Below are positions 16,116-31,623 of a DNA stretch of 64,000 bases, piece after piece. Where the stretch lies: NCBI GenBank assembly GCA_002376725.1, contig DFOM01000059.1, positions 25,113 to 89,112 on the forward strand. Direction: 5' to 3'. Origin of the DNA: Cloacimonetes bacterium UBA3541. GTDB lineage: Bacteria; Cloacimonadota; Cloacimonadia; Cloacimonadales; Cloacimonadaceae. Within the stretch, counting starts at the first letter, position 1, and each line of letters begins with the position of its first letter. The notes beneath the pieces were generated by a model. The model saw nothing but the letters and a program-made list of their open reading frames with translations. It was not told where the DNA came from and made no database searches. Made by a program: the position numbers and the translations under genes.

Positions 16116-17842
16116 AATCCCCTTCTAAACATATACTACTTTTATGTATCTTCTTGCTGGCACTATCTTCTGGTGCCAGCAAGCATAATGATGAGGTTTC
16201 TTCAAATATAACATCAAATTATCGTGCCTTTTGGTCCTATACCTTAGCTTCCTATTACTATTTTGATGGGGACTATGTCTCTGCTAATAAATTTTTCAAG
16301 CAATCTTTAAAATATGAACCGCAATCTACTACTATCAGAAAACAATTTCTCTTAAATTCCTTTGAACTTTATCAAAATAAAGGCATATCAGCAAAAAAAC
16401 TCCAGAAACTAATAGATGATTATAGGAAACATACTCCTTTAGATGAAGATTTACTCTATGCAGCATATAACTTTTACGGACAGAAAAAAAATGAAGCGGA
16501 ACTTTTAAAGATAATTGATGAATTACAGAACAGGTATCCTTCTCCGCGTGCTTACATTCAGAGTTTTCTTTTTGAACTGCAATACCATAAAAAAGTTTCC
16601 CCTGAATATCTTACTCAAGCACAAGAACTGGCTGGTAATAACCCTAGCTATTACCCCCTATTGATTAGACTCTGGTCATTTTTCAATCCTGAAATGGAAA
16701 AACAGTCTATACTGCGCTATTATGAACTGGATAAAGGAGATCAAGCAAACTCCTTTCTGGCAGAATATATTGTTCGTAACCTTGATCTTGAACTTGCTCA
16801 TCAGTATCTTTCTTCTCTAAATTATCCTGAAGATAAAGATTATATGCTCTATTTTGCCTCTGCTCAATGGTCTGAACAACCTAATCCACTTTTACCTGAT
16901 TTAGCAGATTATTTTCTTAAAACTTCAGATTTAGAACTCATTTCAGAACTTGCTCTTTCTGCTCTAACTCAACATCGCTGGGATTTATTTCCTGAAATTG
17001 AAGCAGCAGTTGAATCTTCTTATGCACCAGAGGAAGAAAAACAATCTTTGTATTCTCTCTTGATTGCTTATGCTATCTATCTTTCTAAAGATATACCCTT
17101 ATCCCCTATTCTGAACAAACTCACTGAACTTAAATACTTTGATGCCATTTTTATTTATTATAGCTGCGCAGTTAACCAAAAAATAGACCCAGAGGTCAAA
17201 CTTCCTGCTGCTAAAGATTATGAGCATTTCATCAACGAGATTAAAAAGCGCTTACCAGATGAACCTCCAGCTCGTTATCTGCAAGTAATTGCTTCTCCAG
17301 AGGTAGAGAATTCCGAACCTCTGGTTTTAGATAGTAAATATGAACTGGCTCTCTGGCTTCGGGAAAATCATACCCTCTGTCCTGAAGATTATGAAGTTAT
17401 TATTTATTATTGTCACCTAAAAAAGAATTTTTCCGAAGAACGAAACTTTCTTGAAGAAGCCATAACTAATTGTCCTGACTATCCATCTTTCTATAATGAC
17501 CTTGGCTATTCTATGCTTATTAATGGAGAAAACTCTGAACAAGCTGCATCTTTGATTCGTAAAGCTCTCACTTATGAACCTGAAAATCCCTTTTTTCTGG
17601 ATAGCCTTGCCTGGTATTATTATCTAAATGGAAATTATTCCGAAGCTTTAAATCTTATGTCCATCCCTCAGAAAATGGAAAATATGCCTGCCGAAATTGC
17701 CTGGCATATGGGAGCAATTCATCTGGCTTTAAAGAACTATAAAGATGCTCAAACCTGGCTGCAAAAATGCCTCACTATAGATAACGACCCTGAATCTGAA
17801 GAATTAGCTGAAAAAGCCCTGAAACAAATACCCAAAAAATAA
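16112..17842 (+). CDS. Secreted TPR-repeat protein
   Basis: Signal peptide, then TPR-like repeats. Examples: YYYFDGDYVSANKFFKQSLKYEP, AWYYYLNGNYSEALNLM, HLALKNYKDAQTWLQKCLTIDN. Confidence 0.75.
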   Translation: MKSPSKHILLLCIFLLALSSGASKHNDEVSSNITSNYRAFWSYTLASYYYFDGDYVSANKFFKQSLKYEPQSTTIRKQFLLNSFELYQNKGISAKKLQKLIDDYRKHTPLDEDLLYAAYNFYGQKKNEAELLKIIDELQNRYPSPRAYIQSFLFELQYHKKVSPEYLTQAQELAGNNPSYYPLLIRLWSFFNPEMEKQSILRYYELDKGDQANSFLAEYIVRNLDLELAHQYLSSLNYPEDKDYMLYFASAQWSEQPNPLLPDLADYFLKTSDLELISELALSALTQHRWDLFPEIEAAVESSYAPEEEKQSLYSLLIAYAIYLSKDIPLSPILNKLTELKYFDAIFIYYSCAVNQKIDPEVKLPAAKDYEHFINEIKKRLPDEPPARYLQVIASPEVENSEPLVLDSKYELALWLRENHTLCPEDYEVIIYYCHLKKNFSEERNFLEEAITNCPDYPSFYNDLGYSMLINGENSEQAASLIRKALTYEPENPFFLDSLAWYYYLNGNYSEALNLMSIPQKMENMPAEIAWHMGAIHLALKNYKDAQTWLQKCLTIDNDPESEELAEKALKQIPKK

Positions 17843-17989
17843 ATCATATCATTTATCACTAGAACTTAACATAGACCTTTCCACTACTATCCGAAATAAT
17901 AATCTTTCCTTTTTATCTCTATTCTCCGAAAAATAGCATTATTCTATTGACAAATATAAGAACTATCTAATTTTGTTTTTGAAATGTGT

Positions 17990-18064
17990 TCCGGAATAGC
18001 TCAACGGTAGAGCAGGTGGCTGTTAACCACTTGGTTGGGGGTTCGAATCCCTCTTCCGGAGCCA
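17990..18064 (+). tRNA. tRNA-Asn (anticodon GTT)
   Basis: Acceptor stem TCCGGAA/TTCCGGA. Anticodon stem GGTGG/CCACT with loop CTGTTAA. T-loop GGTTCGAATCC. CCA is encoded and followed by a T7 run. Confidence 0.9.
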
Positions 18065-18953
18065 TTTTTTTGTAATTTTCACCTACAGCATTCACGATTT
18101 AATAATACTATAAATACAAAGAATTAGAAAAAACTATCAGACCTTCATAATAACTTATCATCGTTTCCATATTTAAAAAAACCTCAATATTAGATTTGAT
18201 ATTCTGAAAAATAATCTGAAAGATTTTTGTTTGAGTAATAAATATCTGCTACTAATTATCCTTAGTCGCCAATTGTTTTTTGGGGGGTCCTAATCTCATC
18301 CATTTTATTTAAATTCAGGTTTGACAATCCCTTTTTTTAGCTACTTCATATTCTCTTTCATTTTTTTGGGGTAAAATTATAACAAATTAGATAGACAGTA
18401 TCTTCTGTTTTGTTGTCCCACTTCCATCCATTTTTAACCTTAAATATATCACCATCTATACTGCACTTAATGTAAATTCTTAATTAGCTCTGAATGAATA
18501 TAAATAAAACTTGACTTTTCCCCTAAATTTTTTTTGTATATATAACATAAAATATAATATGGAAGTTCTATAAAGACGTGATGCTACGAAAAATAAGAAT
18601 GTACCAAATTTAATAAAGGAAATTAGGAATAAACATATCTTTACATATGAACAATACGCACAGTTGATAGCAGTGACATTATCAACGATAAAAGCTATGT
18701 GAAAGGTACTCAGATTCCTCACCCCTTGTATTTCAGAAACTTTTTGAAATGTAAGAGGAAGGAGGGATTGAAAAACTCATAATATAACTTATTATGAATT
18801 TATGAATTCTACAATAGTTGGACTGGAAATTAAAATTCCAAATTACTGGAGCGTTAATTTATCAGAAAAAGAAAGCTTTAATATAATGCCATTTATTGGA
18901 ATAATGCTTCTCATTCATAAACTTAATAAAAACTCAGAAAAAAGAGGAATGAT

Positions 18954-20087
18954 ATGCAAATAGAAAAAAATAAATACCAGGATTTTTTGATGCAAGTTAA
19001 AACCAGAATTCAAACATCTCAGGTGCGAGCTATTTTATCTGTAAATGCAGAGTTAATCTATCTTTACTGGGATATTGGACGAATGATAGATAAAAAACAA
19101 AAAGAGGAAGGGTGGGGTGCGGCTGTTATTCCGAATCTATCAAAAGATATTAGAAATGAATTGCCTGAGGTTAAGGGGTTTTCTGAAAGAAATATTGGTA
19201 GAATGATAGCATTTTTCAGGGAATATCCATGCTTAGACCAATTTTTGCCACAGCCTGTGGCAAAATTAGAAGAGAGAAACCATGCTCCAAAAATGCCACA
19301 AGCTGTGGCAAAAATGGCTGCAAAAACTATTATTGAAAAAATATACCCTATTATAACAAACATTCCCTGGGGACACAATATCATCCTTATGGAGAAGGTC
19401 AAGGATATGACTTCTCGCTTATGGTATATGCAAAAAACTATAGAAAATGGCTGGAGTCGTAATATGCTTCGTTCAATGATTGAAGGTAATGCTCATCAGC
19501 GGGAAGGCAAGGCGGTGACCAATTTTGATCTGCGTCTTCCATCTCCACAATCGGATTTAGCAAAACAATCTTTAAAAGACCCTTATATTTTTGATTTTCT
19601 CACTTTAGAGGAACCTTTTAGAGAGCGGGAATTAGAAGTTAGCCTTGTTCAACATTTAGAAAAATTTTTATTGGAATTAGGGCAGGGATTTTCATTTGTA
19701 GGACGGCAATATCATCTCAATGTTGGAGAAAATGATTTTTACATTGATCTTTTATTCTATCATCTTCGTTTAAGGTGTTTTATTGTAATTGAAATAAAAA
19801 AGGGAGAATTTAAGCCTGAATATGCAGGGAAAATTAACTTTTATTGTAATGTGGTTGATGATGTTCTAAAACACGAAACAGACAATCAAACCATAGGTTT
19901 GATCTTATGCCAAGATAAAAATACAGTTGTGGCAGAGTATGCATTGCGTGGATTCAACAAACCAATAGGTGTTTCTAAATATGAATTAACACGTGCATTA
20001 CCAGAGAGCTTAAAATCTTCATTGCCAACAGTAGAAGAAATTGAAGAGGAATTAAAGAATGAAAAAACAAGCAAGAAAGTTGAATGA
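18954..20087 (+). CDS. DUF1016/YhcG-family PD-(D/E)xK nuclease-domain protein (copy 1)
   Basis: N-terminal LIYLYWDIGRMI...GFSERNIGRMIAFF. C-terminal DFYIDLLFYHLRLRCFIVIEIKKGEFKPEYAGKINFY (D...E-x-K core). Confidence 0.85.
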   Translation: MQIEKNKYQDFLMQVKTRIQTSQVRAILSVNAELIYLYWDIGRMIDKKQKEEGWGAAVIPNLSKDIRNELPEVKGFSERNIGRMIAFFREYPCLDQFLPQPVAKLEERNHAPKMPQAVAKMAAKTIIEKIYPIITNIPWGHNIILMEKVKDMTSRLWYMQKTIENGWSRNMLRSMIEGNAHQREGKAVTNFDLRLPSPQSDLAKQSLKDPYIFDFLTLEEPFRERELEVSLVQHLEKFLLELGQGFSFVGRQYHLNVGENDFYIDLLFYHLRLRCFIVIEIKKGEFKPEYAGKINFYCNVVDDVLKHETDNQTIGLILCQDKNTVVAEYALRGFNKPIGVSKYELTRALPESLKSSLPTVEEIEEELKNEKTSKKVE

Positions 20088-20172
20088 GGAATTGCAGGTG
20101 CCTAATATAAAAGCAAAAGAGTTAGAAGAACAAATATCAGAAAATTTAGCAAAGATTATGGGGAAAAAATGA
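20059..20172 (+). CDS. 37-codon ORF translationally coupled to dcm (hypothetical)
   Basis: Below the ORF-track cutoff. It reads MKKQARKLNEELQVPNIKAKELEEQISENLAKIMGKK. Its TGA (20170-20172) overlaps the dcm ATG (20169-20171), and its 5' end overlaps the YhcG stop region. Confidence 0.25.
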   Translation: MKKQARKLNEELQVPNIKAKELEEQISENLAKIMGKK

Positions 20173-21419
20173 AAAATAAATTAACCTTTATTGAATTATT
20201 TGCGGGTGCAGGTGGACTTTCTGAAGGGTTTATAAGAACAGGATTTCAACCAGTGGCATATATTGAAATGGATAAATATTCATGTCTTACACTTAAAACT
20301 CGTATGGCTTACTATTATTTAAGAAGACAGGGTAAAAGTGCTTTATATTCTGGATATATAAAAGGAGATATAACCCGGGAACAATTATATTCTTATATCC
20401 CGCAAAATCTTTTTTGCTCTATTATAAACGAAGAAATAAAGCAGGATACCCTGAGTGAGCTTTTCGGAAAAGTTGAAACAAATATGGAAAAGAACAATAT
20501 AAAACAAATCAATATACTTTTAGGTGGGCCACCGTGTCAGTCTTATTCATTAATCGGGCGGGCTCGCGATCTATACAGGATGGAAAACGATACAAGAAAT
20601 TATCTATATAAATTATATACAGAATTTTTAAAAAAATTTAAGCCAGAGATATTTGTTTTTGAAAATGTTCCAGGCTTAATATCAGCTTATAAAGGTCAAT
20701 TATGGAAGGATATACAGGAATGTTTTTCTAAAGCGGGATATAAAATATCTTACAAAATACTCAATGCTTATGATTTTGGGGTTCTTCAGAATAGAAAGAG
20801 AATTATTGCTATTGGGTGGAGAACAGAATTAAACTTGAAATATCCAGAATTTAATAATGATTATATGGTTAAAAAATATAAAGTTGACGATATTTTATCT
20901 GATTTACCTCCAATAAAAGCAGGTGATAGATTAACAGCAGTTAAGTATGCTGGAAAAGCAACAGAATATCTTACAGAATATGGAATAAGAAATGATGAAG
21001 ATATTCTTACCCTTCATATAGCCCGCAGGCATAATAAACAGGACACAATGATTTATGAATTTTATATTAAAAGCTGGTTTGAGAAAAAGGAGCGCCCTGA
21101 ATATGACCAACTTCCAGAATATCTTAAAACACACAGAAACAGGACTTCATTTAAAGACCGCTTTAAAATTGTAGCACCTGACCTTCCATATTCTCAAACT
21201 GTTGTTTCACATCTTGGGAAAGATGGGCATTATTTCATACATCCTGATATCAATCAGTTAAGGTCAATCTCACCAAGAGAGGCGGCAAGGTTACAGTCAT
21301 TTCCTGATAATTTTTATTTTGAAGGGTCAATGACATCGGTATTCAGGCAAATCGGGAATGCCGTTCCCCCACTGATGGCTGAAAAAATAGCTTTAAAGAT
21401 CAGGGAGATGATAGGATGA
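20169..21419 (+). CDS. dcm: DNA (cytosine-5)-methyltransferase
   Basis: All diagnostic motifs are present: FAGAGGLSEGF (I), LLGGPPCQSYS (IV), FVFENVPGL (VI), QNRKRIIAIG (VIII), RQIGNAVPP (X). Confidence 0.95.
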   Translation: MKNKLTFIELFAGAGGLSEGFIRTGFQPVAYIEMDKYSCLTLKTRMAYYYLRRQGKSALYSGYIKGDITREQLYSYIPQNLFCSIINEEIKQDTLSELFGKVETNMEKNNIKQINILLGGPPCQSYSLIGRARDLYRMENDTRNYLYKLYTEFLKKFKPEIFVFENVPGLISAYKGQLWKDIQECFSKAGYKISYKILNAYDFGVLQNRKRIIAIGWRTELNLKYPEFNNDYMVKKYKVDDILSDLPPIKAGDRLTAVKYAGKATEYLTEYGIRNDEDILTLHIARRHNKQDTMIYEFYIKSWFEKKERPEYDQLPEYLKTHRNRTSFKDRFKIVAPDLPYSQTVVSHLGKDGHYFIHPDINQLRSISPREAARLQSFPDNFYFEGSMTSVFRQIGNAVPPLMAEKIALKIREMIG

Positions 21420-23509
21420 AAAAAGATCTAATATTTAAGCCCCGCGCAAGATTAATTCTTCAACTAGGAGACCAACTCATTAAAAATGAAAGTATTGCAT
21501 TTCTTGAACTCGTAAAAAATGCTTATGATGCAGATGCAACCAGAGTTAGTATTGTAATGGAAAAAGTTGATGACCCAGAGAATGGGAAAATAATTATAGA
21601 AGATGACGGATGTGGAATGACACCTGAAATTATAACAAATGTCTGGATGGAACCAGGAAGTGATTTTAAGGAAAAAATGTTCAGGGAAAACATCAGAACG
21701 CCAAAATTCAAAAGACTGCCACTCGGTGAGAAAGGGATAGGAAGATTTGCTGTTCATAAGTTAGGAAATCTAATTGAGGTTATAACCAGAGCTGAAAATA
21801 ATCCTGAGGTTGTTCTTTCTATAGACTGGAGTCTATTTAATAAATCTGATTACCTTGAAAACATTGGTATCAAGATGATTGAAAGAGAACCTGTTTATTT
21901 TAAAAACAAAACAGGCACAAGAATAAAAATAAAATTAAAAACTGTATTTTCAAGGGGTAGTGTAAGAACCATTTATAGATCTCTTAACTCATTCTGTACA
22001 CCGTTTAGTGATTCTCAACAATTTAAGATTGATTTCAAGATTGACAGGAAAGAATGGATTGAGGGACTCCTTTCCTGGGATGAGATAAAAAATTACTCTT
22101 TATTTAATTTTCTTTGTGAACTGAAAGGAGAAAAAATAATAAAATTCAGGTATGAGTTCACTCCATGGCCTGCAATGACAAAATTAAATGGAAGAATTGT
22201 TGATGAAAATAATGAATATATTAAGAAACAATTAATAATAACTGACAGTAAAGGCAATACAATTAATCTTGATAATTTTAAAATAGGACATATTAGATTT
22301 GAAGGTTTCATATTTGATAGAGATACCCGAATTCTTTCTCTTGGCGTTCATGATAAAAAGGGATTGAAAGAATATCTGGATATGAATGGAGGAGTTAAAG
22401 TATTCCGCGATGGGATAAGGATTTATGATTATGGTGAACCCGATAATGATTGGCTAAACCTTGATAGAAGAAGGGTAAATATTCCAGCAAAAAGAATAAG
22501 TAATAATATTATAATTTCTGCAGTTTATCTTGATAGAGAAAAAAGCATGGATTTAAGAGAAAAAACAAACAGAGAAGGTTTTATTGAAAATGAAGCATAC
22601 AATGAATTAAAAAAATCTTTGATTTATTGTCTGGAGAGAGTAGAAGAGTTACGATATGAAGATAAAAATAAAATAAGAACAAATTATGGTCTGGAAAACA
22701 AGAAAGAACCGGTTGTTTCCACTATAAAAGAATTAAAAACAGTGGTTGAAAGTAAAATAAAAGAAGAAACTGTCAAAAGAGAAATCAATAAACTCCTTGA
22801 TAGAATAGAAGGCGATTATGTGCAAATGAAAGAAGTCCTTCTTAAAAGTGCAGGGGCAGGTCTTACATTAAGTGTGGTTATCCACGAGATTGAGAAAATA
22901 ATTGATGAATTAGAAAAAGTTGTAAAATATGAAAAATCTTCTGAGAAAATTATTAACCTTGTTAAACATCTGGCAGACCTTATAGAAGGCTATACTCTCA
23001 TAATAAGAAAAACAGAAACTAAAAAATGGGATTTAAAGCAATTAATAAATCAAGCAATATTCAATATGGAATATCGCTTTAAAGTGCATAATATTGAAAT
23101 AAAAAAAGATTATGAGAATAAAACAGATAAATTTGAAGTTAATTGTGCAAGAAATCTTGTATTAAATTCTCTTATGAATATAATGGACAACTCAATCTGG
23201 TGGATGGAGTATTCAAAAATTCAACATAAGAAAATTTTCATAACTATTTCTGAAAATATAGAGAAGAGTATAACAATAGTTATAGCAGACAATGGACCGG
23301 GATTAACACTTTCCACTGAAGAAATAATAAAACCATTTGTATCTGCAAAACCTGATGGAATGGGTCTTGGATTGCATATCGTGGATGAAGTTATGAAGGC
23401 TCATAAAGGATTACTTTTATTTCCTCAACCAGATGAGTTTGATATACCAGAGGAATTTGAAAAAGGTGCCATTGTTGCACTTGCATTTCAAAAGGAGGTT
23501 GTAAAATGA
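21416..23509 (+). CDS. Cytoplasmic double-Bergerat ATPase: N-terminal MORC/MutL-like GHKL domain plus C-terminal histidine-kinase core (H, N, G1, F, G2 boxes)
   Basis: N-terminus: FLELVKNAYDADATRV, IIIEDDGCGMT, GEKGIGRFAVHKLG. C-terminus: LSVVIHEIEKII (H-box-like), LMNIMDNSIWW (N), IVIADNGPGL (G1), IIKPFVSAK (F), GMGLGLHIV (G2). No TM segments. ATGA overlaps at both ends. Confidence 0.75.
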   Translation: MKKDLIFKPRARLILQLGDQLIKNESIAFLELVKNAYDADATRVSIVMEKVDDPENGKIIIEDDGCGMTPEIITNVWMEPGSDFKEKMFRENIRTPKFKRLPLGEKGIGRFAVHKLGNLIEVITRAENNPEVVLSIDWSLFNKSDYLENIGIKMIEREPVYFKNKTGTRIKIKLKTVFSRGSVRTIYRSLNSFCTPFSDSQQFKIDFKIDRKEWIEGLLSWDEIKNYSLFNFLCELKGEKIIKFRYEFTPWPAMTKLNGRIVDENNEYIKKQLIITDSKGNTINLDNFKIGHIRFEGFIFDRDTRILSLGVHDKKGLKEYLDMNGGVKVFRDGIRIYDYGEPDNDWLNLDRRRVNIPAKRISNNIIISAVYLDREKSMDLREKTNREGFIENEAYNELKKSLIYCLERVEELRYEDKNKIRTNYGLENKKEPVVSTIKELKTVVESKIKEETVKREINKLLDRIEGDYVQMKEVLLKSAGAGLTLSVVIHEIEKIIDELEKVVKYEKSSEKIINLVKHLADLIEGYTLIIRKTETKKWDLKQLINQAIFNMEYRFKVHNIEIKKDYENKTDKFEVNCARNLVLNSLMNIMDNSIWWMEYSKIQHKKIFITISENIEKSITIVIADNGPGLTLSTEEIIKPFVSAKPDGMGLGLHIVDEVMKAHKGLLLFPQPDEFDIPEEFEKGAIVALAFQKEVVK

Positions 23510-24792
23510 GTTTACCAGAATATGGGAGGGTTGTTATTATAGATGATAATATAAAAGAAGTTGAAGCGTTGATTAAAGTATTATCTAAACATAGAACATC
23601 CATAACTTATTTTACTGGGGCTAATAATGAATTACCGGACACTCCATTTCCTGATGTAAGAATTGTTTTTCTTGATGTTGTTCTTGAAGGGCTTACAGGA
23701 AAAGATACAAAGACAATTGTGTCCACCCTGATTGGGATTCTTGGGAAAATTGTCGATAAAAACAATGGACCATTTGTTATAGTTTTATGGACAAAGCATC
23801 CTGAACATGTAAAGGGTCTTAAAAAAGCCCTTAAAACAGAAAAATATAAATATATTCTTATTGACCTTGAAAAAAAAGATTTTTTTGATCAGAATGGAGG
23901 TTTCAAGCTCGATTCTTATGATTCTCTTAGAAATAGATTAAATGAAAAAATTGCTGGGATTGATATTTTTGATATATTCATCATATGGGAAAATATTATG
24001 AATAATTCAGCAGGTATAACAGTTAATGATTTTTCACAACTGATTAAGTTTAATGATAACTGGAATAATGATATGAAAAATATTTTTTATAAAATGGCTG
24101 AAGCTTGGGCTGGTAAAACTCTTAAGGAACAAAATACACAGAAAATTTTAAAAAATGCCTTATTCACTTTTAATGGGATTTTTAATGATATTTTTGAAGG
24201 TTTGATACAGAATGAAAAATACTCAGCTTATCAAGGTACTTTTTCTTCTAACAACATAAATGAAAAAAACAAAGGCAGAATCAATATAAAATTGTTGCTA
24301 GATTTCAGCGATCTGGAAAAGTTTTATCCGGGAGATGTTTACAGAATAAATAAAAATGCAAAGAATAGTTCTGAACTACTGAAGGATATTTTGGATATTA
24401 ATAAGATTAATGATGAAAAATTTTTTAAAATAAAAAAGAAATCAATACAGGTATTTGCAGAAGTGACACCTTTATGTGATTTTCTACAGGAAAAAATAAA
24501 ACTATACAGGGTAATAGAAGGATTCATTATTCCAGAAAAATATAAAGATGAACAAAACATTGATCATTATGTAAAAATAAAAAAAGCCGAATTTATTTAT
24601 AAAACACCAGTTTTTACGTATAAAAATGAAATATATAGATTAATTCTGGACTTTAAATATTTTTCTTCTAAAACAAAAGATGAACTTAAAAACTTCTCCC
24701 CAATCTTCAGGTTGAGAAAAGAACTATTAAATGATATACAGATAAAACTTTCATCGCATATTAACAGAACAGGAATATTATTTATTGATTAA
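23506..24792 (+). CDS. Receiver (REC)-like N-terminal domain fused to an unassigned ~290-aa C-terminal domain
   Basis: RVVIIDDNIKE (acidic pair after beta1), VRIVFLDVVLEG (candidate phospho-acceptor Asp), FVIVLWTKH (beta4 Thr), YILIDLEKK (candidate Lys). I recognise no motif in the remainder. Confidence 0.6.
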   Translation: MSLPEYGRVVIIDDNIKEVEALIKVLSKHRTSITYFTGANNELPDTPFPDVRIVFLDVVLEGLTGKDTKTIVSTLIGILGKIVDKNNGPFVIVLWTKHPEHVKGLKKALKTEKYKYILIDLEKKDFFDQNGGFKLDSYDSLRNRLNEKIAGIDIFDIFIIWENIMNNSAGITVNDFSQLIKFNDNWNNDMKNIFYKMAEAWAGKTLKEQNTQKILKNALFTFNGIFNDIFEGLIQNEKYSAYQGTFSSNNINEKNKGRINIKLLLDFSDLEKFYPGDVYRINKNAKNSSELLKDILDINKINDEKFFKIKKKSIQVFAEVTPLCDFLQEKIKLYRVIEGFIIPEKYKDEQNIDHYVKIKKAEFIYKTPVFTYKNEIYRLILDFKYFSSKTKDELKNFSPIFRLRKELLNDIQIKLSSHINRTGILFID

Positions 24793-25513
24793 TATGGTAA
24801 GAATACAACCCAACATTGTCAAATGGTATCGGATAAATGGACGTGATTTTCCGTGGAGACATACAAAAGACCCTTACAAAATAATGATTGCTGAATTTAT
24901 GCTTCATAGAACAAAAGCAGAACAGGTGGTACCGGTATATTCTAAATTTATAGAAAAATACCCTTGCGTTAAATCTCTTTTCATGGCAAAAGGAAATGAT
25001 ATTAAAAAATTTACTGCTCATCTTGGATTACATTGGAGAAGCAGGCATTTTATTGAATCCGTCAGATATATCATAAAAAAGTTTGATGGGAAATTCCCTG
25101 ATGATTATGATGAACTAAGAAAGATACCTGGAATTGGAGAATATATTGCAGGGGCAATAATGACAGTATCTTTTAATAAACCTGCTCCTGTGGTTGATAG
25201 CAACATAGCCAGATTTATAAATAGATATTACGGATTGAATCTTGATGGAGAACTTAGAAGAAAAAGAGAAATTATAAGAATTGCTTATGAACTTTTTAAA
25301 TACAAAAATCCAGGGTTATTTCTCTTTGCTATTATAGATTTTACAGCAGTTATCTGCAAACCACGAATACCTTTATGTCAGAATTGTCCCCTGGAAAAAG
25401 AATGTGAAAATACGGAGATTACACTATGTAAGAATAAGATCACCAGGCCAAATCAGCAGCAAAAAAAGCAGGAAGGTAAAAAATATCAGAAATTGGAGAT
25501 GGATAGTGAATAA
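24785..25513 (+). CDS. HhH-GPD DNA glycosylase with Fe-S cluster loop, MutY/EndoIII/Mig-like, lacking the MutY C-terminal domain
   Basis: DFPWRHTKDPYKIMIAEFMLHRTKAEQV, HhH LRKIPGIGEYIAGAIM, catalytic-Asp region VVDSNIARF, cluster CKPRIPLCQNCPLEKEC. Only 242 aa. 8-nt overlap with the upstream gene. Confidence 0.85.
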   Translation: MINMVRIQPNIVKWYRINGRDFPWRHTKDPYKIMIAEFMLHRTKAEQVVPVYSKFIEKYPCVKSLFMAKGNDIKKFTAHLGLHWRSRHFIESVRYIIKKFDGKFPDDYDELRKIPGIGEYIAGAIMTVSFNKPAPVVDSNIARFINRYYGLNLDGELRRKREIIRIAYELFKYKNPGLFLFAIIDFTAVICKPRIPLCQNCPLEKECENTEITLCKNKITRPNQQQKKQEGKKYQKLEMDSE

Positions 25514-25645
25514 GAACAAGACAAATCCGTGGATACTAAGAAAAATTTTTGCAATATGTCAGATTTAAGCTGGACGACGGTCTTTAAAAAGAGTAACACA
25601 CAATATAAAGTCATCACCGAAGAAAAAAGCAGAGATAAATAATTT

Positions 25646-26350
25646 ATGGGTAAAGAAAAGAAATATCCAAAGGCAATTATAAACTGGCCTGAAGATGAAA
25701 GACCACGGGAACGTCTTTTGAAATTAGGTGCTGAAAATCTTTCTAATACAGAACTTTTAGCAATTATTTTAAGAGTCGGCTCAAATGGTAAAAGTGCTAT
25801 TGATATGGCAAGGGAATTGATGAATGAATATCAAACTTTTAGAAATATTGACTCTAAGAGTTTTGCCGAACTTAAAAGAAAAGGCTTAGGTATTGCTAAA
25901 ATTGCTCAAATAAAAGCAGCTATAGAAATTGGCAAAAGATTTCTTAATGACAAAAGTTTGACTAAAGTCAAGGTTGAAACCAGCAAGGATATAGTTGATT
26001 ATTTTAAGCCTTCCTTGAGGGATATGAAAAAAGAAATTTTTAAAGCAGTTCTGCTTGACGGAAAAAATAAAATAATTAAAGAAGTAACTATATCAGAAGG
26101 AACTCTTACAAAAAGCATTGTCCATCCGAGAGAGGTTATAAAAGAAGCAGTTATAGAATCTTCAGCGGCTTTGGTACTTATTCATAACCACCCAAGCGGT
26201 GAGCCTGAACCAAGTCAAGATGATATAGAAATAACTAATCGTATAATCTCTGCCTGTGACCTTGTGGGTATAAAAGTTTTAGACCATATTATCATTGGCG
26301 ATGACAACTATTTTAGTTTTTTCAATGAAGGACTGATAAAGGAGGAGTAA
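25646..26350 (+). CDS. radC: RadC-family JAB/MPN domain protein
   Basis: N-terminal ERPRERLLKLGAENLSNTELLAIILRVG and JAMM motif LVLIHNHPSGEPEPSQDD. Confidence 0.92.
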   Translation: MGKEKKYPKAIINWPEDERPRERLLKLGAENLSNTELLAIILRVGSNGKSAIDMARELMNEYQTFRNIDSKSFAELKRKGLGIAKIAQIKAAIEIGKRFLNDKSLTKVKVETSKDIVDYFKPSLRDMKKEIFKAVLLDGKNKIIKEVTISEGTLTKSIVHPREVIKEAVIESSAALVLIHNHPSGEPEPSQDDIEITNRIISACDLVGIKVLDHIIIGDDNYFSFFNEGLIKEE

Positions 26351-26352
26351 TA

Positions 26353-27249
26353 ATGCCCAAAACCCTTTTTATTGAGGCTGCATACCAAGTGTTAAAGGAA
26401 AAAGGAGAACCATTAAGTGCAGAAGAAATAACTAAAATTGCCCTTGATAAAGGATTAATGAAGACTACTGGCAAAACTCCAGTGGCAACTATGGGAGCAA
26501 GAATTTATATGGATATGAAAACAAAGGGCAATAATTCTTTATTCACAAAAGTTAAACGAGGTGAGTTTGGTTTGAAAGAATGGCAAGAATTTGCTCAAAA
26601 GCAGGAAGTCTATGGATATAGAAAAGGTAGTTTTAAAGATGCAGCATATCAAGTTTTAAAATTAGAAAATAAGCCTTTAAGCATTCAAAAAATTACCGAA
26701 ATTGCTATGAAGAGAAATCTGTTTACATCCTCTGGCAAAACTCCCGAGGCAACAATGGGAGCACAATTATATACAGATATCAAAAGATTGGGGGACCAAT
26801 CCCCTTTTGTTCAATTGGGCAAAAACAAATTTGGATTACGAGAGTGGGATATTAGCGTTCTTAAAAATGAAATTAAAATTCAGGAAAAAGAAACAATAAT
26901 TTCTGAGAAAAAGCGCTCTATTGTTGGAGACCCGATTAACTTTGAAGGATTGATTTATGGACCTTTAAATGAAAATGGAGTTATATTTTTATTTAGCAAG
27001 ATTCACGATAAGTTGGAAATAAATATTGAAGCAATTCAGGCAACATTTCCTGACGCTAAAGGTCGGAGGAAAACTACTAAAGGCTGGGAGGATGTTTGGA
27101 TTGAATTTGAATATAAGAGTTCACATTTTAAGATTCATAAACACGATCCAAGTGAATGTGACCTTATTGTTTGCTGGGAACATGATTGGAAAGAATGTCC
27201 TATTGATGTTATTGAGTTAAAATCCGTGATACAAAAATTAAAGGGGTAA
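26353..27249 (+). CDS. Tandem HARE-HTH domains fused to a small PD-(D/E)xK-like C-terminal domain
   Basis: Two paralogous wHTH units: EAAYQVLKEKGEPLSAEEITKIALDKGLMKTTGKTPVATMGARIYMDMK...GEFGLKEW and DAAYQVLKLENKPLSIQKITEIAMKRNLFTSSGKTPEATMGAQLYTDIK...NKFGLREW. The C-terminus reads TFPDAKG...VWIEFEYKSSHFKIHKHDPSECDLIVCWEHDW. Confidence 0.7.
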   Translation: MPKTLFIEAAYQVLKEKGEPLSAEEITKIALDKGLMKTTGKTPVATMGARIYMDMKTKGNNSLFTKVKRGEFGLKEWQEFAQKQEVYGYRKGSFKDAAYQVLKLENKPLSIQKITEIAMKRNLFTSSGKTPEATMGAQLYTDIKRLGDQSPFVQLGKNKFGLREWDISVLKNEIKIQEKETIISEKKRSIVGDPINFEGLIYGPLNENGVIFLFSKIHDKLEINIEAIQATFPDAKGRRKTTKGWEDVWIEFEYKSSHFKIHKHDPSECDLIVCWEHDWKECPIDVIELKSVIQKLKG

Positions 27250-27252
27250 CCT

Positions 27253-29142
27253 ATGCCTGAAAAAGAATATAAACCAACTGAGGAACTTGAAGCAAAAGAA
27301 GGGTATGTAAAGGATTTTTTAACTAACCGATTAATCCGCTCTACCCCGGAGGAACAAGTTAGGCAAATTATGTTGATGAGATTGGTACAAGAATACGAAT
27401 ATCCTATAGAATGTATAAAAACAGAGTTTGAAATACAAAAAGGAAGTAAAAGAATTGGTCCCGCAGATATTGTAGTTTTTAAAGATGCAAAAAGCAAAGA
27501 CCAGGAGAATATTTGGATTATTGTAGAAACCAAACGCAAAGAACGTTCTGACGGTATTGAACAATTAAAAAGTTATTTGGCTCCCTGCCTCAACGCTAAG
27601 TTTGGGATATGGTTTAATGGTAATAATATTGCCTATATTGAAGTAGTTAGAAACAGGGATAAATTTGAATTCAAAGATGTTCTTAGAATACCTAAATGTG
27701 GGGAAACTACAATTCATCTTCCAGAAAAGAAAGATTTAAAACCAGCACCAGAATTAAAAAGCATTTTTGAAACATGTCATAATTATATTTATGCAAATGA
27801 AGGATTGCTTAAGGAAAAAGTTTTTAATGAAGTTTTAAAACTTATTTTTATAAAAATGGTTGATGAAAAAAGAAGTTCTGCAAAATGTGAATTTGGAATA
27901 ACATCAGAAGAGGAAGAAGAAATAAAAGAGGGTAAGTCAAGTGTTTTTACAGAAAGAATTATAAATCTTTTTAAAGAAGTAAAGTCAATGTATAGTGATG
28001 TCTTTGAACAGAATGAAAGGATAAATTTAAAGCCAATTACTCTTGCCTTTGTTGTAAGCCAACTTCAAGAATATAGCCTTATAGAAACAAAAGCAGATGT
28101 TAAAGGGACTGCCTTTCAGACATTTGTCTCTGCTCACCAAAGGGGAGAGCGAGGTGAATTCTTTACTCCACACCCCATAGTTGAATTAGCTGTTGAAATG
28201 CTTGACCCAAAAGATAATGAAAAATTTATTGACCCTGCATGTGGCTCAGGAGGTTTTCTTGTTAATGGGATGAACTATGTTAAGGAAAAATTTATCAAGG
28301 AAAGACCTGACAAAAAATCTAAAGCAAACGAAATCCTCAAAGAATATACTCATTTTCATATATCAGGTATAGATATTAATCCAGATTTATCAAAGGTCGC
28401 CAAGATGCATATGATTTTATACGATGATGGGCATACAGGAATATTTTCTGCAAACAGTCTTTCATCATTTGAAGAACTAATGGACTTGGCGTCAAGGGCA
28501 CGAGTTCCACTTTCTCTTACTCCTTCGCCTAATGCTTTTGATGTTTTGATGACAAATCCTCCTTTTGGAAGTAAAGGCAAGGTAACAGATAAAAGAATCT
28601 TAAAGCAGTTTGAACTTGGTTATAAATGGAGACAAGACAAAACCACTGGAAAATGGATAAAAACAGATGAACTACAAAATGGACAAGTCCCAGATATTTT
28701 GTTCATTGAAAGGTGTCTGCAACTTCTCAAAGATGGTGGTAGGATGGCAATCGTCTTACCAGATGGTAATCTAAATAATTCATCTTTAGGTTATGTTAGG
28801 GAATTTATACAGCAGAATGCAAGGATTTTAGCAGTTGTTTCAATGCCTGTTGGAACTTTTATGCAAGCAGGAGTAAACCCCAAGACAAGCGTTTTATTCT
28901 TACAAAAACTCAATGAAGAAAAATTAAATGAACTCAAAAAAGCTAATTATCCAATTTTTATGGCAGTAGTTGAAAAGATTGGCTATGACTTAAATTCAAA
29001 AACACCAAAAGTTATGTATAAGAAAGATGAAAAAGGAGAGGTTCTAAAAGATGATGATGGCGAGCCAATTATAGATACAGATATTCCAAAAATTATTGAG
29101 GCATTTAAAGACTTTAAAAGAAAATATCAATTAGGATTTTAA
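27253..29142 (+). CDS. N6-adenine DNA methyltransferase (HsdM/gamma class) with N-terminal HSDR_N-type PD-(D/E)xK module; BcgI-A-like
   Basis: N-terminus: PEEQVRQIMLMRLVQEYEYP...IGPADIVVF...IWIIVETKRK. MTase motifs: EFFTPHPIVELAVEMLDP (X), FIDPACGSGGFLV (I), VLMTNPPFGSKG (IV). Confidence 0.85.
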   Translation: MPEKEYKPTEELEAKEGYVKDFLTNRLIRSTPEEQVRQIMLMRLVQEYEYPIECIKTEFEIQKGSKRIGPADIVVFKDAKSKDQENIWIIVETKRKERSDGIEQLKSYLAPCLNAKFGIWFNGNNIAYIEVVRNRDKFEFKDVLRIPKCGETTIHLPEKKDLKPAPELKSIFETCHNYIYANEGLLKEKVFNEVLKLIFIKMVDEKRSSAKCEFGITSEEEEEIKEGKSSVFTERIINLFKEVKSMYSDVFEQNERINLKPITLAFVVSQLQEYSLIETKADVKGTAFQTFVSAHQRGERGEFFTPHPIVELAVEMLDPKDNEKFIDPACGSGGFLVNGMNYVKEKFIKERPDKKSKANEILKEYTHFHISGIDINPDLSKVAKMHMILYDDGHTGIFSANSLSSFEELMDLASRARVPLSLTPSPNAFDVLMTNPPFGSKGKVTDKRILKQFELGYKWRQDKTTGKWIKTDELQNGQVPDILFIERCLQLLKDGGRMAIVLPDGNLNNSSLGYVREFIQQNARILAVVSMPVGTFMQAGVNPKTSVLFLQKLNEEKLNELKKANYPIFMAVVEKIGYDLNSKTPKVMYKKDEKGEVLKDDDGEPIIDTDIPKIIEAFKDFKRKYQLGF

Positions 29143-29143
29143 G

Positions 29144-30250
29144 ATGGAGAATAAAAAAATAACCACTAGAAATTATACAAGCCTGCTTGATAGAATTGCA
29201 GAAATTTTAGTAGAGGGAAGAACAAAGGTAGTGCGAGAAATAAACAGGGCTCAAGTATTAACTTACTGGGAGATTGGAAGAGAAATTGTTGAGTTTGAAC
29301 AGAAAGGTAAGGCAAGAGCAAAATACGGAAAAGAACTTATTGCAAAATTAGCAAAAGATATGACACAAAAATTTGGTAGAGGATTTTCGGAGAGAAACTT
29401 GTGGAATATGAGAGCTTTTTATCTCAATTTTCCAATTCCGCAGACACTGTCTGCAGAATTTTTAGAAGGTAAAAAATCCGAGACACTGTCTAGTAAATCT
29501 TTAATTAGTCAGACTTCGTCTGACCAATTTGAACCTATGTTATCCTGGTCTCATTACTGCGAATTGCTAAAAGTAGAAGAACTTCTTGCCCGTTCTTTTT
29601 ATGAACAAGAAGCAATCCAGAATAACTGGTCTGTGAGAGAATTAAAAAGGCAAATTAACTCAATGCTTTTTGAAAGAATTGCTTTAAGTAAGGATACAAA
29701 TGCAGTAATGGAAATGGCTAAAAAAGGACAGATTGTAGAAAAACCAGAAGATGCAATTAAAGATCCATACATCCTTGAGTTTCTTAATCTTAAAGAAGAG
29801 ACATCTTATACTGAATCTCAACTTGAGCAAGCACTCATTGATAAACTCCAATATTTCTTATTAGAACTTGGTAAAGGTTTTACTTTTGTTGCCCGTCAGA
29901 AAAGAATTACGATTGCGAATCGTCATTATTATGTGGATTTGGTTTTCTATAATCGGCTGTTAAAGTGTTTTGTTTTAATTGATTTGAAAACAGACGAACT
30001 TGACCATTCAGATATTGGTCAGATGAATTTCTACCTGAACTATTTCAAAGAGAATGAAAAACAAGCAGATGAAAACGATCCAATTGGGCTTATACTCTGT
30101 GCAATGAAAGACGATATTTTTGCAAAGTATGTTTTAGGTGGATTAAACAATAAAGTTTTCGCTTCAAAATATAAATTAGCACTACCATCAGAAGAAGAGC
30201 TATGCCTCAAGCTTAAATCAATACCAAAAATATTGGAGGAAAAGAAATGA
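29144..30250 (+). CDS. DUF1016/YhcG-family PD-(D/E)xK nuclease-domain protein (copy 2), inserted between the M and S genes
   Basis: VLTYWEIGREIVEFEQ...GFSERNLWNMRAFY and HYYVDLVFYNRLLKCFVLIDLKTDELDHSDIGQMNFY. Same architecture as 18954-20087. Confidence 0.85.
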   Translation: MENKKITTRNYTSLLDRIAEILVEGRTKVVREINRAQVLTYWEIGREIVEFEQKGKARAKYGKELIAKLAKDMTQKFGRGFSERNLWNMRAFYLNFPIPQTLSAEFLEGKKSETLSSKSLISQTSSDQFEPMLSWSHYCELLKVEELLARSFYEQEAIQNNWSVRELKRQINSMLFERIALSKDTNAVMEMAKKGQIVEKPEDAIKDPYILEFLNLKEETSYTESQLEQALIDKLQYFLLELGKGFTFVARQKRITIANRHYYVDLVFYNRLLKCFVLIDLKTDELDHSDIGQMNFYLNYFKENEKQADENDPIGLILCAMKDDIFAKYVLGGLNNKVFASKYKLALPSEEELCLKLKSIPKILEEKK

Positions 30251-31623
30251 TTATTTCAGAAATAAGATATAATCAGGCAATTAAAAGGTTGAGATTTGAT
30301 GCTGAGTTTTATAACCCTTTCAAACTTGAGTCGATGCGAACATTAAATGCAATTACTAGTAATACAATAGGGGAGAAATTTAATTCAATTAGAGATGTAT
30401 TTGATCCAAATAAATATTACCAAAAGAATGAAACTGCTAATATTGTTGAACTTGCTGATATATCCAATAAATTTGTGTCAAACAAACGGACATGTAAAAT
30501 TTACGAAGTCGGTAGCCAGAAGAAAAAATTTAACAAGAATGACGTGTTAATATCAAGACTACGCTCTTACCTTGAAGAAATTTTTTATGCTATAGATTTT
30601 CCAGAAAATAAAATAAACTTGTGTTCAACCGAATTTATTGTTTTACGAAGGAAGGAAAAAGAAAATGTCACACCTGAGTTTCTGTATATACTGCTTCAAA
30701 CATCATTTATACAGGAGATTTTAAAATGGAGTCAAGATGGAACAAATCACCCACGATTTGACGAAGATTACTTATTAGACTTACCATTTCCTATACCTTC
30801 TATCGTTTTCCAGCAAAAAATAGAATTAATTGTTAAAGAAGCATATAAAAAGCGAAAAGAAGCAGATGAAAAATATAAACAGGCAGAAGTTTTGTTGAAT
30901 AAAGCATTAGGGATTGAAAAATTAGAATTAAAAGATGAAAAGATTTTTGAAACAGGATTTGATGAAGTTGAAAGTGTATTGCGTTTTGATGCAGAGCATT
31001 ATCAACCAAAATATAAGGAAGTGAGAAAATTTATCGGCACGGCAGGATATGAAGTTAGAAAACTAAGAGATGCTGTTGAAATCTCCGATAATAAGATAAG
31101 TCCTTTATCTAAACCCACTGAATTATTTAGTTATATTGAACTTGCTAACATAAATTCCTCCACTGGTGAAATAGAAGAAGTCAATCAAATAAAAGGATAT
31201 AATGCACCAAGCCGGGCAAGGATGCTTGTGAGAAAAGGGGATGTATTAGTTTCTTCGCTTCTGGGATCTCTTGATAATATTGGTTTGGTTCCCGAAAAAT
31301 TAGATGGTTCAATAGCAAGCACTGGATTTTTTGTGATAAGGTCTAAATTTTTCTTGCCTGAATTTTTATTTTTACTATTCAAGTCAAACTTGATGAGATT
31401 GCAACTTGAAGAAAAAACAGCAGGAGCAATCATGAGTGCAGTCCCAAAAAATACTTTTGGCGATTTGCTTGTTCCTATGATTCCTGAAGAAACACAAAAA
31501 CAAATCTCAAACCTTATCAGACAATCATTTTCTCTTCGCAAAGAATCAAAAGAACTTTTAGAAAAGGCAAAAAAAGAAGTTGAAGAATTTATTGAGAAAA
31601 ATACTAATTACAACCGCCCCTGA
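30247..31623 (+). CDS. hsdS: Restriction-modification specificity (S) subunit with two target-recognition halves
   Basis: Two half-repeats, each beginning LRFDAEFYNPFK / LRFDAEHYQPKYK, followed by variable TRD sequence and helical spacers (KEADEKYKQAEVLLNKAL, KESKELLEKAKKEVEEFI). Confidence 0.88.
   Translation: MIISEIRYNQAIKRLRFDAEFYNPFKLESMRTLNAITSNTIGEKFNSIRDVFDPNKYYQKNETANIVELADISNKFVSNKRTCKIYEVGSQKKKFNKNDVLISRLRSYLEEIFYAIDFPENKINLCSTEFIVLRRKEKENVTPEFLYILLQTSFIQEILKWSQDGTNHPRFDEDYLLDLPFPIPSIVFQQKIELIVKEAYKKRKEADEKYKQAEVLLNKALGIEKLELKDEKIFETGFDEVESVLRFDAEHYQPKYKEVRKFIGTAGYEVRKLRDAVEISDNKISPLSKPTELFSYIELANINSSTGEIEEVNQIKGYNAPSRARMLVRKGDVLVSSLLGSLDNIGLVPEKLDGSIASTGFFVIRSKFFLPEFLFLLFKSNLMRLQLEEKTAGAIMSAVPKNTFGDLLVPMIPEETQKQISNLIRQSFSLRKESKELLEKAKKEVEEFIEKNTNYNRP

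Follow-up and report, generated by a model that had tools for sequence, protein, structure and literature searches.

A predicted GHKL ATPase-histidine kinase fusion and its receiver partner in a cytosine methylase cassette of a Cloacimonadota bacterium: a candidate phosphorelay-gated defence module

Introduction

Prokaryotic MORC and paraMORC ATPases occur as components of restriction-modification (R-M) systems together with cytosine methylases and Vsr, in paraMORC/methylase/Vsr neighbourhoods for which a parallel has been drawn with the role of MutL in mismatch repair and very-short-patch repair (Iyer, Abhiman and Aravind 2008; PMC2292703). A different use of such a domain was reported by Bellieny-Rabelo, Pretorius and Moleleki (2021, Genome Biol Evol 13:evab024; PMC8011034), who described proteins with the architecture HATPase_c_3, HEF_HK, HATPase_c and a receiver-like partner (Response_reg_2). 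Here we describe a divergent branch of the latter kind, encoded in a four-gene cassette within a 64,000-nucleotide stretch of DNA from Cloacimonetes bacterium UBA3541 (assembly GCA_002376725.1, contig DFOM01000059.1, positions 25,113 to 89,112 of the forward strand; hereafter the window, with position 1 as its first letter). The cassette comprises a C5 cytosine DNA methyltransferase, a soluble GHKL ATPase/histidine-kinase fusion (the kinase), a receiver protein with a C-terminal (CT) output domain (the partner), and an HhH-GPD glycosylase.

The 2021 study was purely computational. Linkage of the two genes was found for 91.6% over 644 regions, with 222 unique sequences, mostly from Proteobacteria; an upstream C5-methylase and a downstream Vsr were noted and a paraMORC origin was proposed. 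Its authors suggested that the GHKL domain is the sensor, with nucleoside triphosphate (NTP) sensing by HATPase_c_3, and that the pair exerts signalling control over R-M systems (PMC8011034). Two experimentally characterised defence systems are also relevant. VcSduA, a Shedu protein of the paraMORC3 type (GHKL plus PD-(D/E)xK), provides anti-phage defence that depends on its ATPase Glu as well as on its nuclease Lys (PMC12137116). Detocs depends on the His of its kinase, the Asp of its receiver and the active site of its effector (Rousset et al. 2023; bioRxiv 10.1101/2023.01.24.525353).

From the analysis below we conclude, with moderate confidence, that the cassette is a phosphorelay-gated, restriction-like defence module in which the kinase is the sensor half of a cytoplasmic two-component pair.

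Results

A GHKL ATPase joined to a histidine-kinase core

The kinase gene is intact and encodes a single polypeptide with two Bergerat-fold ATPase domains, as an earlier note made from the letters of the window alone had read it. In Pfam scans of the 697-residue protein, HATPase_c_3 (PF13589) matches residues 27-156 (E 2.7e-19; 70 bits against a cut-off of 25) and HATPase_c matches residues 586-688 (E 2.4e-18; 67 bits against a cut-off of 26.4), both far past chance. The motifs that the note had quoted for the two halves are all present where it placed them, and its view that the protein carries no transmembrane segment and no PAS, GAF or HAMP domain is borne out: the Pfam scan found none of these or any other sensor domain, and the highest 19-residue Kyte-Doolittle hydropathy is 1.41. 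The note had allowed for a degenerate C-terminal domain. The N, G1, F and G2 residues are in fact conserved, and, judged by their motifs, both the C-terminal CA domain and the N-terminal GHKL domain are non-degenerate.

Named relatives differ for the two halves. For residues 16-173 the nearest is the NCBIfam model NF050001 (BbrUII/HgiDII), which scores 82 bits against a cut-off of 550 and aligns over only positions 12-165 of its 659; PADLOC REase_II models also match the N-terminal GHKL domain, and MORC2 is among its PDB sequence matches. BbrUII and HgiDII are Type II restriction enzymes that partner with C5 methylases. The kinase shares a related N-terminal GHKL domain with them, but the rest of the enzyme is replaced by the linker, DHp and CA domains. 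The CA domain matches AtoS, CpxA, PgtB and others in NCBIfam and, in PDB sequence and profile searches, the CA domains of HK853, ZraS, FixL and NtrB.

An AlphaFold2 (AF2) monomer model, computed with a 30-homologue alignment (mean pLDDT 78.6), places the parts in the order GHKL domain, middle domain, long helices, helical hairpin and CA domain, with the boundaries listed in Table 1. Foldseek searches of the PDB with this model align Hsp90, GRP94, TRAP1 and MORC2 over some 450-490 columns, that is, over the N-terminal half past the GHKL domain, in agreement with the MORC/MutL type proposed in the note. The whole DHp and CA core of HK853 and ZraS aligns over about 250 columns at a target-normalised TM-score of 0.52-0.58. 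Because both classes of match are returned, the predicted structure supports a two-module reading, and the model shows a MORC/MutL/Hsp90-type GHKL and middle module joined to a predicted class-I histidine-kinase core. The middle domain has conserved residues at R331/R335, Y339, D345-W-L, R353 and K383-TNREGF. It is a candidate S5-fold transducer, given the length of the Hsp90, TRAP1 and MORC2 alignments and the retention of the basic residues K383, R335 and R353.

Conservation was assessed in a close set of 30 homologues (53-76% identity) and a divergent set of 35 (28-44% identical to the window kinase, 27% mean column identity). In the close set E31, N35, D38, D63, G67 and G104-F111 of the first GHKL domain are invariant, as are H490, E491, N588, N592, D625-N-G627, F641, G648, G650 and G652 of the kinase core. 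Across the divergent set the invariant or nearly invariant positions are E31, N35, D38, D63, G65, G67, G104, K106, G107, G109 and R110 in the GHKL domain and N588, N592, D625, G627, F641, G648, G650 and G652 in the CA domain. The His-Glu hairpin lies about 100 residues ahead of the N box, and an H-(E/D) pair is retained in 34 of the 35 divergent homologues. The segment A479-G-A-G-L483 (window 22850-22864), 7-11 residues before His490, is the part of the model with the lowest confidence (pLDDT 33-44); it is invariant in the close homologues and reads (A/S)(A/G)xxG(L/M/I) in the divergent ones.

A receiver fused to a conserved output domain

The partner gene is translationally coupled to the kinase gene; its start codon lies within the latter, and its AAGGAGG Shine-Dalgarno sequence also sits within the kinase 3' end. 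Its N-terminus carries the succession VVIIDD (Asp13, Asp14), VFLDVVL (Asp57), LWT (Thr96) and Lys123. The AF2 model of the partner has the (beta-alpha)5 receiver fold (pLDDT 86.2), and every significant Foldseek match among the PDB and viral predicted structures (BFVD) is a response-regulator receiver (PorX, FixJ, StyR, DctD, PhoP). Among 70-76 partners from other genomes, whose mean identity is as low as 14-16%, retention is 100% for D57, 97% for D13, 98% for W95 and 97% for K123. Since the phosphotransfer residues are kept across these proteins, the N-terminus is, to judge from its residues, a true receiver and not a pseudo-receiver.

The CT domain is conserved in its own right. N260, G276 (in PGxVY), C324-D325 (in TPxCD; codons 24475-24480) and R421-x-G423 are fully or almost fully conserved, at 90% or more across the sets examined (70 sequences, 16% mean identity). 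No helix-turn-helix (HTH) or other known DNA-binding output was found in it. A profile search of 5.8 billion proteins gave no occurrence of the domain beyond its fusion to the receiver domain; all the proteins returned were receiver-fused and unnamed. Three catalytic families were considered by eye and rejected. As a PD-(D/E)xK nuclease, D325 lies too close to Q328-x-K330 and D382-x-K384 is not conserved; as a sortase with TLxTC, the domain has no conserved His and the Arg is 97 residues away; and as a protein tyrosine phosphatase with C-x5-R, the position of the Arg holds a poorly conserved Lys. Three proteins of 378-380 residues (P0128, P0129, P0132) combine GHKL Pfam matches with 54% coverage of the partner at 87-97% identity; these could have arisen by read-through or frameshift, joining the kinase 3' end to the partner, or could be artefacts of gene calling.

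The receiver is retained when the output changes

Short receiver proteins without the CT domain occur at six loci. At two of these (L041:8109-8864 and L055:8156-8908) the place of the CT domain is taken by a helical domain with RNKFAH or RNYFAH, a HEPN-type RNxxAH (Rx4H) motif that is confined to these 2 of the 76 partners. The replacement is, from this motif, a probable HEPN RNase, and the two proteins plausibly account for the isolated HEPN_Swt1 and CARF_HEPN library matches. At two further loci (L065:8937-9893 and L074:8916-9890) an open reading frame (ORF) with LSHPH(E/R)DH (HxHxDH) abuts or overlaps the gene for a short receiver lacking the CT domain; its match to the ComEC/Rec2 metallo-beta-lactamase domain is weak (E about 1e-3 to 8e-3). 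As modules are exchanged behind a constant receiver, as in Detocs, we take the CT domain to be an effector rather than a regulator, and the exchanges suggest that the receiver gates an effector that is toxic.

The pair is linked to a cytosine methylase and to mismatch enzymes

Gene order was surveyed in 83 fetched loci and the window region (84 sequences), in which ORFs were called and scored with profiles. A receiver protein lies directly downstream of the kinase at 76 of 78 loci, a pairing that holds almost without exception from phylum to phylum, and at 70 of the 78 it also has the CT domain. The C5-methylase adjoins the kinase on its upstream side at 45 of 76 loci, and at 70 of 83 one is present within 6 kb. 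Among the 38 loci at which the second downstream ORF was scanned it is Vsr in 15 and HNH_2 in 3; HhH-GPD proteins take this position in the window and at four or more further loci. The kinase-receiver pair is also found without a mismatch enzyme or methylase nearby.

In the window all four cassette genes overlap or abut (Table 1), and their G+C content is slightly lower than that of the window as a whole (30.7% against 34.7%). PADLOC labels the glycosylase 'Type II nicking endonuclease' (1.6e-40), grouping it with the 'nicking endonuclease' V-genes of REBASE; the enzyme probably supplies a T:G repair function that goes with 5-methylcytosine (5mC) methylation. Its start is ambiguous, being either TTG at 24785, which overlaps the partner stop by 8 nucleotides, or an in-frame ATG at 24794, 2 nucleotides past that stop. 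Caldithrix abyssi carries the same four-gene cassette, again in a defence island.

Table 1. Coordinates of the cassette genes and their domains in the window
Feature	Coordinates	Strand	Evidence and landmarks
C5 cytosine DNA methyltransferase	20169..21419	+	Cassette gene 1; Pfam DNA_methylase 3.6e-64, NCBIfam dcm 1.6e-56, PADLOC DrmMII/MTase_II; stop overlaps kinase start (ATGA)
Kinase gene (paraMORC-type GHKL/histidine-kinase fusion)	21416..23509	+	ATG to stop intact, 697 aa
GHKL domain 1	21416..21940	+	Residues 1-175; E31, N35, D63, G67, lid G104-EKGIGRF-111
Middle (transducer-like) domain, beta-rich	21953..22585	+	Residues ~180-390; AF2, Foldseek, conservation
Long helical linker	22592..22858	+	Residues 393-481; ends at A479-G-A-G-L483; AF2 secondary structure
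DHp-like helical hairpin	22868..23011	+	Helices 485-505 and 509-532; candidate phospho-acceptor His490 (codon 22883-22885), then Glu491
CA domain	23021..23491	+	Residues 536-692; N588/N592, D625-N-G627, F641, G648-x-G650-x-G652-L
Receiver-effector partner	23506..24792	+	428 aa; start overlaps kinase stop by 4 nt (ATGA)
REC (receiver) domain	23527..23880	+	Residues 8-125; D13-D14, D57 (codon 23674-23676), W95-T96, K123
CT output domain	23896..24792	+	Residues 131-428; helical bundle 137-264 plus alpha/beta core
HhH-GPD glycosylase (MutY/Mig-like)	24785..25513	+	Pfam HhH-GPD/HHH; NCBIfam mutY 2.6e-52 (below cut-off)

The surrounding region, 18954-31623, has the make-up of a defence island, with two YhcG/DUF1016 nucleases, RadC, a HARE-HTH protein and a type-I-like methylase with its S subunit. 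The two YhcG/DUF1016 proteins (PD-(D/E)xK nucleases; PADLOC PDC-S02) both adjoin methylases. One (18954-20087) ends 80 nucleotides upstream of the C5-methylase. The other (29144-30250) lies between an HSDR_N_2 plus N6_Mtase gene (27253-29142) and a type I S-subunit gene (30247-31623), with ends that nearly abut or overlap. The upstream copy was considered as a conserved part of the system and rejected, its homologues being found in the window only and not beside the kinase at other loci. The interval 25646-27249, 3' of the cassette, encodes RadC (JAB) and a protein with two HARE-HTH stretches, and RadC is near the cassette in C. abyssi as well (L001 1456-2139). A promoter and terminator scan of 17800-27400 gave nothing clearly above shuffled expectation and no usable operon boundary.

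The kinase family is widespread and mobile

More than 120 full-length homologues of the kinase share 54-76% identity with it, from Caldithrix, Methanosarcina, Ignavibacteria, Nitrospirota and others. At E ≤ 1e-30 the family numbers 2,642 clusters (50% identity), and a relative is encoded in at least 587 species-representative genomes. Its range takes in Cloacimonadota, Bacteroidota, Planctomycetota, Firmicutes and archaea, in a sporadic, cross-phylum pattern. Plasmid-borne copies are found on 64 plasmids, 52 of them conjugative and 41 from Campylobacter, and the PGAP labels on these copies already read 'sensor histidine kinase', 'response regulator' and dcm. On some 40 conjugative Campylobacter plasmids of 50-60 kb the kinase is accompanied by a 340-residue 'response regulator' and dcm is convergent, not upstream; the shorter partner retains the PGxxY, TPSCD and RQG motifs. 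The neighbours there include VapD, a recombinase and HicAB (for example Campylobacter coli pCC21NB01-51K, NZ_CP109818.1 20735-31876; locus L084). Eight homologues (P0185, P0187, P0191, P0195, P0207, P0214, P0258, P0264) have an N-terminal extension of 130-240 residues, which gave isolated weak matches and no convincing Pfam family in the members scanned. In an archaeal (Cenarchaeum) metagenome-assembled genome (L011, OY282369.1, 5737-11820) a single shortened receiver-CT gene of 336 residues stands between two kinase paralogues.

Relation to described systems

The window genes resemble the HEF_HK/Response_reg_2 system in that the kinase is soluble and has HATPase_c_3, a DHp-like His-acidic pair and HATPase_c in that order; the partner has the receiver residues followed by a C-terminus outside named families, and a C5-methylase lies upstream. 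They differ from it in having an HhH-GPD glycosylase where Vsr would be expected, and the conservation of the CT domain and the alternative effectors are not part of the 2021 description (PMC8011034). The Pfam model for HEF_HK (PF19191) matches neither the window kinase nor any of 10 proteobacterial relatives, and touches 2 of 35 kinase relatives weakly (best E 6.7e-4). That for Response_reg_2 (PF19192) does not match the window partner, nor any of the 76 partners at E ≤ 0.01, its presence in the searched copy of Pfam being unverified. Because both models miss the window proteins, membership in the published kind rests on architecture and context. On these grounds the window protein is a divergent branch of the HEF_HK kind, and the radiation to which it belongs is far broader than 222 sequences.

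With paraMORC proteins the kinase shares an intact N-terminal GHKL domain, a middle domain after it and an output in the C-terminal extension, as well as linkage of its family to cytosine methylases and Vsr, a sporadic distribution and lateral spread. Where those proteins have a fused nuclease, a TIR domain or a helicase partner, however, the output here is a kinase core that would signal to a separate receiver-effector. The likeness to Detocs, read here from sequences, lies in a cytoplasmic kinase, putative phosphotransfer to a receiver-effector and a swappable effector domain. In contrast, a TPR sensor, a third, buffering receiver (DtcB), an effector that is mostly a PNP ATP-nucleosidase and the lack of a methylase link are features of Detocs. 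No homologues of DtcA, DtcB or DtcC were found, PADLOC giving REase_II on the GHKL domain of the kinase alone; nor was there a recurrent PADLOC family among the 76 partners or a third receiver gene in the cassette. A 'HATPase/REC' system is predicted in the DefensePredictor paper, and from the portion of that paper accessible to us no link to the kinase family could be made.

Discussion

The case for defence is built on the receiver pairing, the C5-methylase linkage, the exchange of effectors and the presence in defence islands and on conjugative plasmids, together with the precedents of VcSduA and Detocs and the GHKL domain held in common with the HgiDII and BbrUII enzymes. The earlier note read the kinase gene correctly but in isolation, missing the cognate receiver-effector gene and the R-M context, in the light of which the purpose of the kinase is seen differently. 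Its proposal that the GHKL module is the sensor is reasonable and coincides with that made in 2021; the design that it thought unusual had already been published (PMC8011034). Several results weigh against a phosphorelay-gated defence module, and they concern in turn the kinase chemistry, the effector and the genomic context.

As to the kinase, none of the HisKA-type Pfam models (HisKA, HisKA_2, HisKA_3, HWE_HK) matches the isolated linker/DHp segment at E ≤ 10, so that the H-box is assigned from the conservation of its motif, from its spacing, from the predicted structure and from the partner gene. The note's description of an H-box histidine kinase holds in respect of the conserved His490-Glu491, the hairpin and the match to the HK853/ZraS core, and fails to find a counterpart among the HisKA-type families. 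A scan of 1.1 Mb of fetched flanks for canonical kinases gave one weak HisKA kinase (L080:82-1314), and hhalign aligned our kinase with it over the CA domain alone (probability 95.6%). Residues 470-487, directly before the His helix, have low pLDDT in the AF2 model, and a conserved Gly-rich break so near the modelled position of His490 would be atypical of DHp helix 1. The kinase thus resembles HK853, ZraS, AtoS and NtrB in its full CA boxes, its His-Glu hairpin and the receiver encoded downstream, but differs from them in having no membrane anchor, PAS, HAMP or GAF domain, in an H-box too divergent for HisKA and in the Gly-rich break. The same results would suit an arrangement with no phosphorelay, in which the C-terminal core is a second ATPase or dimerisation module and a pseudo-receiver is bound constitutively in an ATP-driven nuclease complex; most paraMORC families do work without kinase chemistry, through nucleases that are directly fused to them or associated with them (PMC2292703). 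We consider this highly improbable. Pseudo-receivers characteristically lose the acceptor Asp or the residues that partner it, whereas D57 is kept here in 100% of partners and D13, W95 and K123 in 97-98%; the His-acidic pair persists in all but one of the 35 divergent kinases; and the C-terminal half superposes on the full core of HK853, a kinase crystallised with its regulator.

As to the effector, the CT domain gave no PDB sequence-profile match at E ≤ 10, no fold match in Foldseek searches of the PDB and BFVD, and no Pfam or PADLOC family over the 76 partners beyond scattered single matches. No nuclease fold or motif was recognised in it, and to call it a nuclease is to guess from its context and from the effectors that replace it elsewhere. 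Moreover, some loci hold ordinary restriction nucleases too (MvaI_BcnI, EcoRII-C, HNH_2), and in those few the pair may therefore be an accessory and not the restriction enzyme. Such nucleases beside the pair, and a CT domain with no recognisable catalytic fold, would be expected of a regulatory two-component system, in which the CT domain has a binding or regulatory role and the pair tunes the activity or expression of the methylase and repair genes, or of a distant restriction system, in response to a cytoplasmic cue such as NTP level, DNA damage or methylation status. This comes near to the R-M control and NTP sensing proposed by Bellieny-Rabelo et al. (PMC8011034). We nevertheless think it unlikely. 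The CT domain has no HTH or known DNA-binding output; the conservation of the polar residues C324-D325, N260 and R421 at 16% mean identity is typical of an active site; and the domain is exchanged for a probable HEPN RNase or the receiver is paired with a putative hydrolase of the metallo-beta-lactamase fold. Furthermore, no recognisable nuclease gene was seen beside the cassette in the window and in most loci examined, and the methylase would for that reason be an orphan.

As to context, no C5-methylase was found inside 6 kb of the kinase at 13 of 83 loci, and no sequence-reading or methylation-reading domain is evident in kinase or partner, the cue for the GHKL domain being an inference. We found no experimental follow-up of the 2021 HEF_HK study in the literature. 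MutL stimulates Vsr in E. coli, and Vsr-type genes go with many ordinary C5-methylase R-M systems that need no kinase. On the model of the first of these facts, the cassette could be a dedicated machine for the repair of deaminated 5mC, in which a MutL-like GHKL protein, Vsr or HhH-GPD and the methylase act on T:G mismatches under the coordination of the kinase-receiver pair. A GHL-clade ATPase is indeed always present in the cassette, T:G repair genes are common downstream of the receiver gene, and Iyer et al. (2008) drew the parallel with MutL repair (PMC2292703). Such a machine seems to us improbable, because Vsr is common in R-M systems without a kinase and the pair occurs with neither a mismatch enzyme nor a methylase nearby, and because defence islands, conjugative plasmids, sporadic spread and the HEPN and metallo-beta-lactamase exchanges point to conflict and not to housekeeping.

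Returning to the defence module, its operation can be sketched; what we infer in it is the nature of the signal, which way regulation runs and the chemistry of the effector. ATPases of the GHL clade (MutL, Hsp90, GyrB, MORC) are dimers held at their C-terminal ends, whose N-terminal GHKL domains close on ATP binding. The DHp domain is an obligate dimer, and one at the C-terminal end can for this reason be a constant dimer interface. The kinase would accordingly be a constitutive dimer through its DHp hairpin, which would stand in for the C-terminal dimerisation of MutL, Hsp90 and MORC clamps. Driven by ATP, the GHKL domains would close, probably on DNA without the cassette's 5mC mark or on some other infection cue, and this would be signalled through the long helical linker to the CA domain, which would then phosphorylate His490. 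From there the phosphoryl group would pass to Asp57 of the partner, and the phosphorylated partner would release the activity of the CT effector, most likely a nuclease acting through Cys324-Asp325, against nucleic acid. The methylase would shield self DNA, and the glycosylase or Vsr would mend the T:G mismatches that arise from 5mC deamination.

It is possible, and we put it forward as a tentative proposal, that this amounts to a new principle of restriction, in which a MORC-like, ATP-gated clamp reads whether DNA is foreign or unmethylated and, in place of activating a fused nuclease, reports by His-to-Asp phosphotransfer to a separate effector with a Cys-Asp active site in a fold not seen before. 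If so, restriction would be a signalled, amplifiable and reversible decision, and the kinase output would be a direct biochemical read-out of the closure of a MORC-type clamp. Signal transduction by MORC-type ATPases is poorly understood in bacteria and eukaryotes alike, and here such an ATPase is joined to a phosphorylation output that is easily measured. The CT output domain is itself of interest as a conserved domain without known relatives.

The architecture is not new; what is new is a testable mechanism in a widespread, plasmid-borne candidate defence system. Its carriage on conjugative plasmids, including some 40 from Campylobacter, may influence the movement of plasmids and phages in pathogens. 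If the mechanism is correct, the family would represent the second phosphorelay-based form of bacterial immunity after Detocs, and the first to be tied to the marking of self and non-self by DNA methylation.

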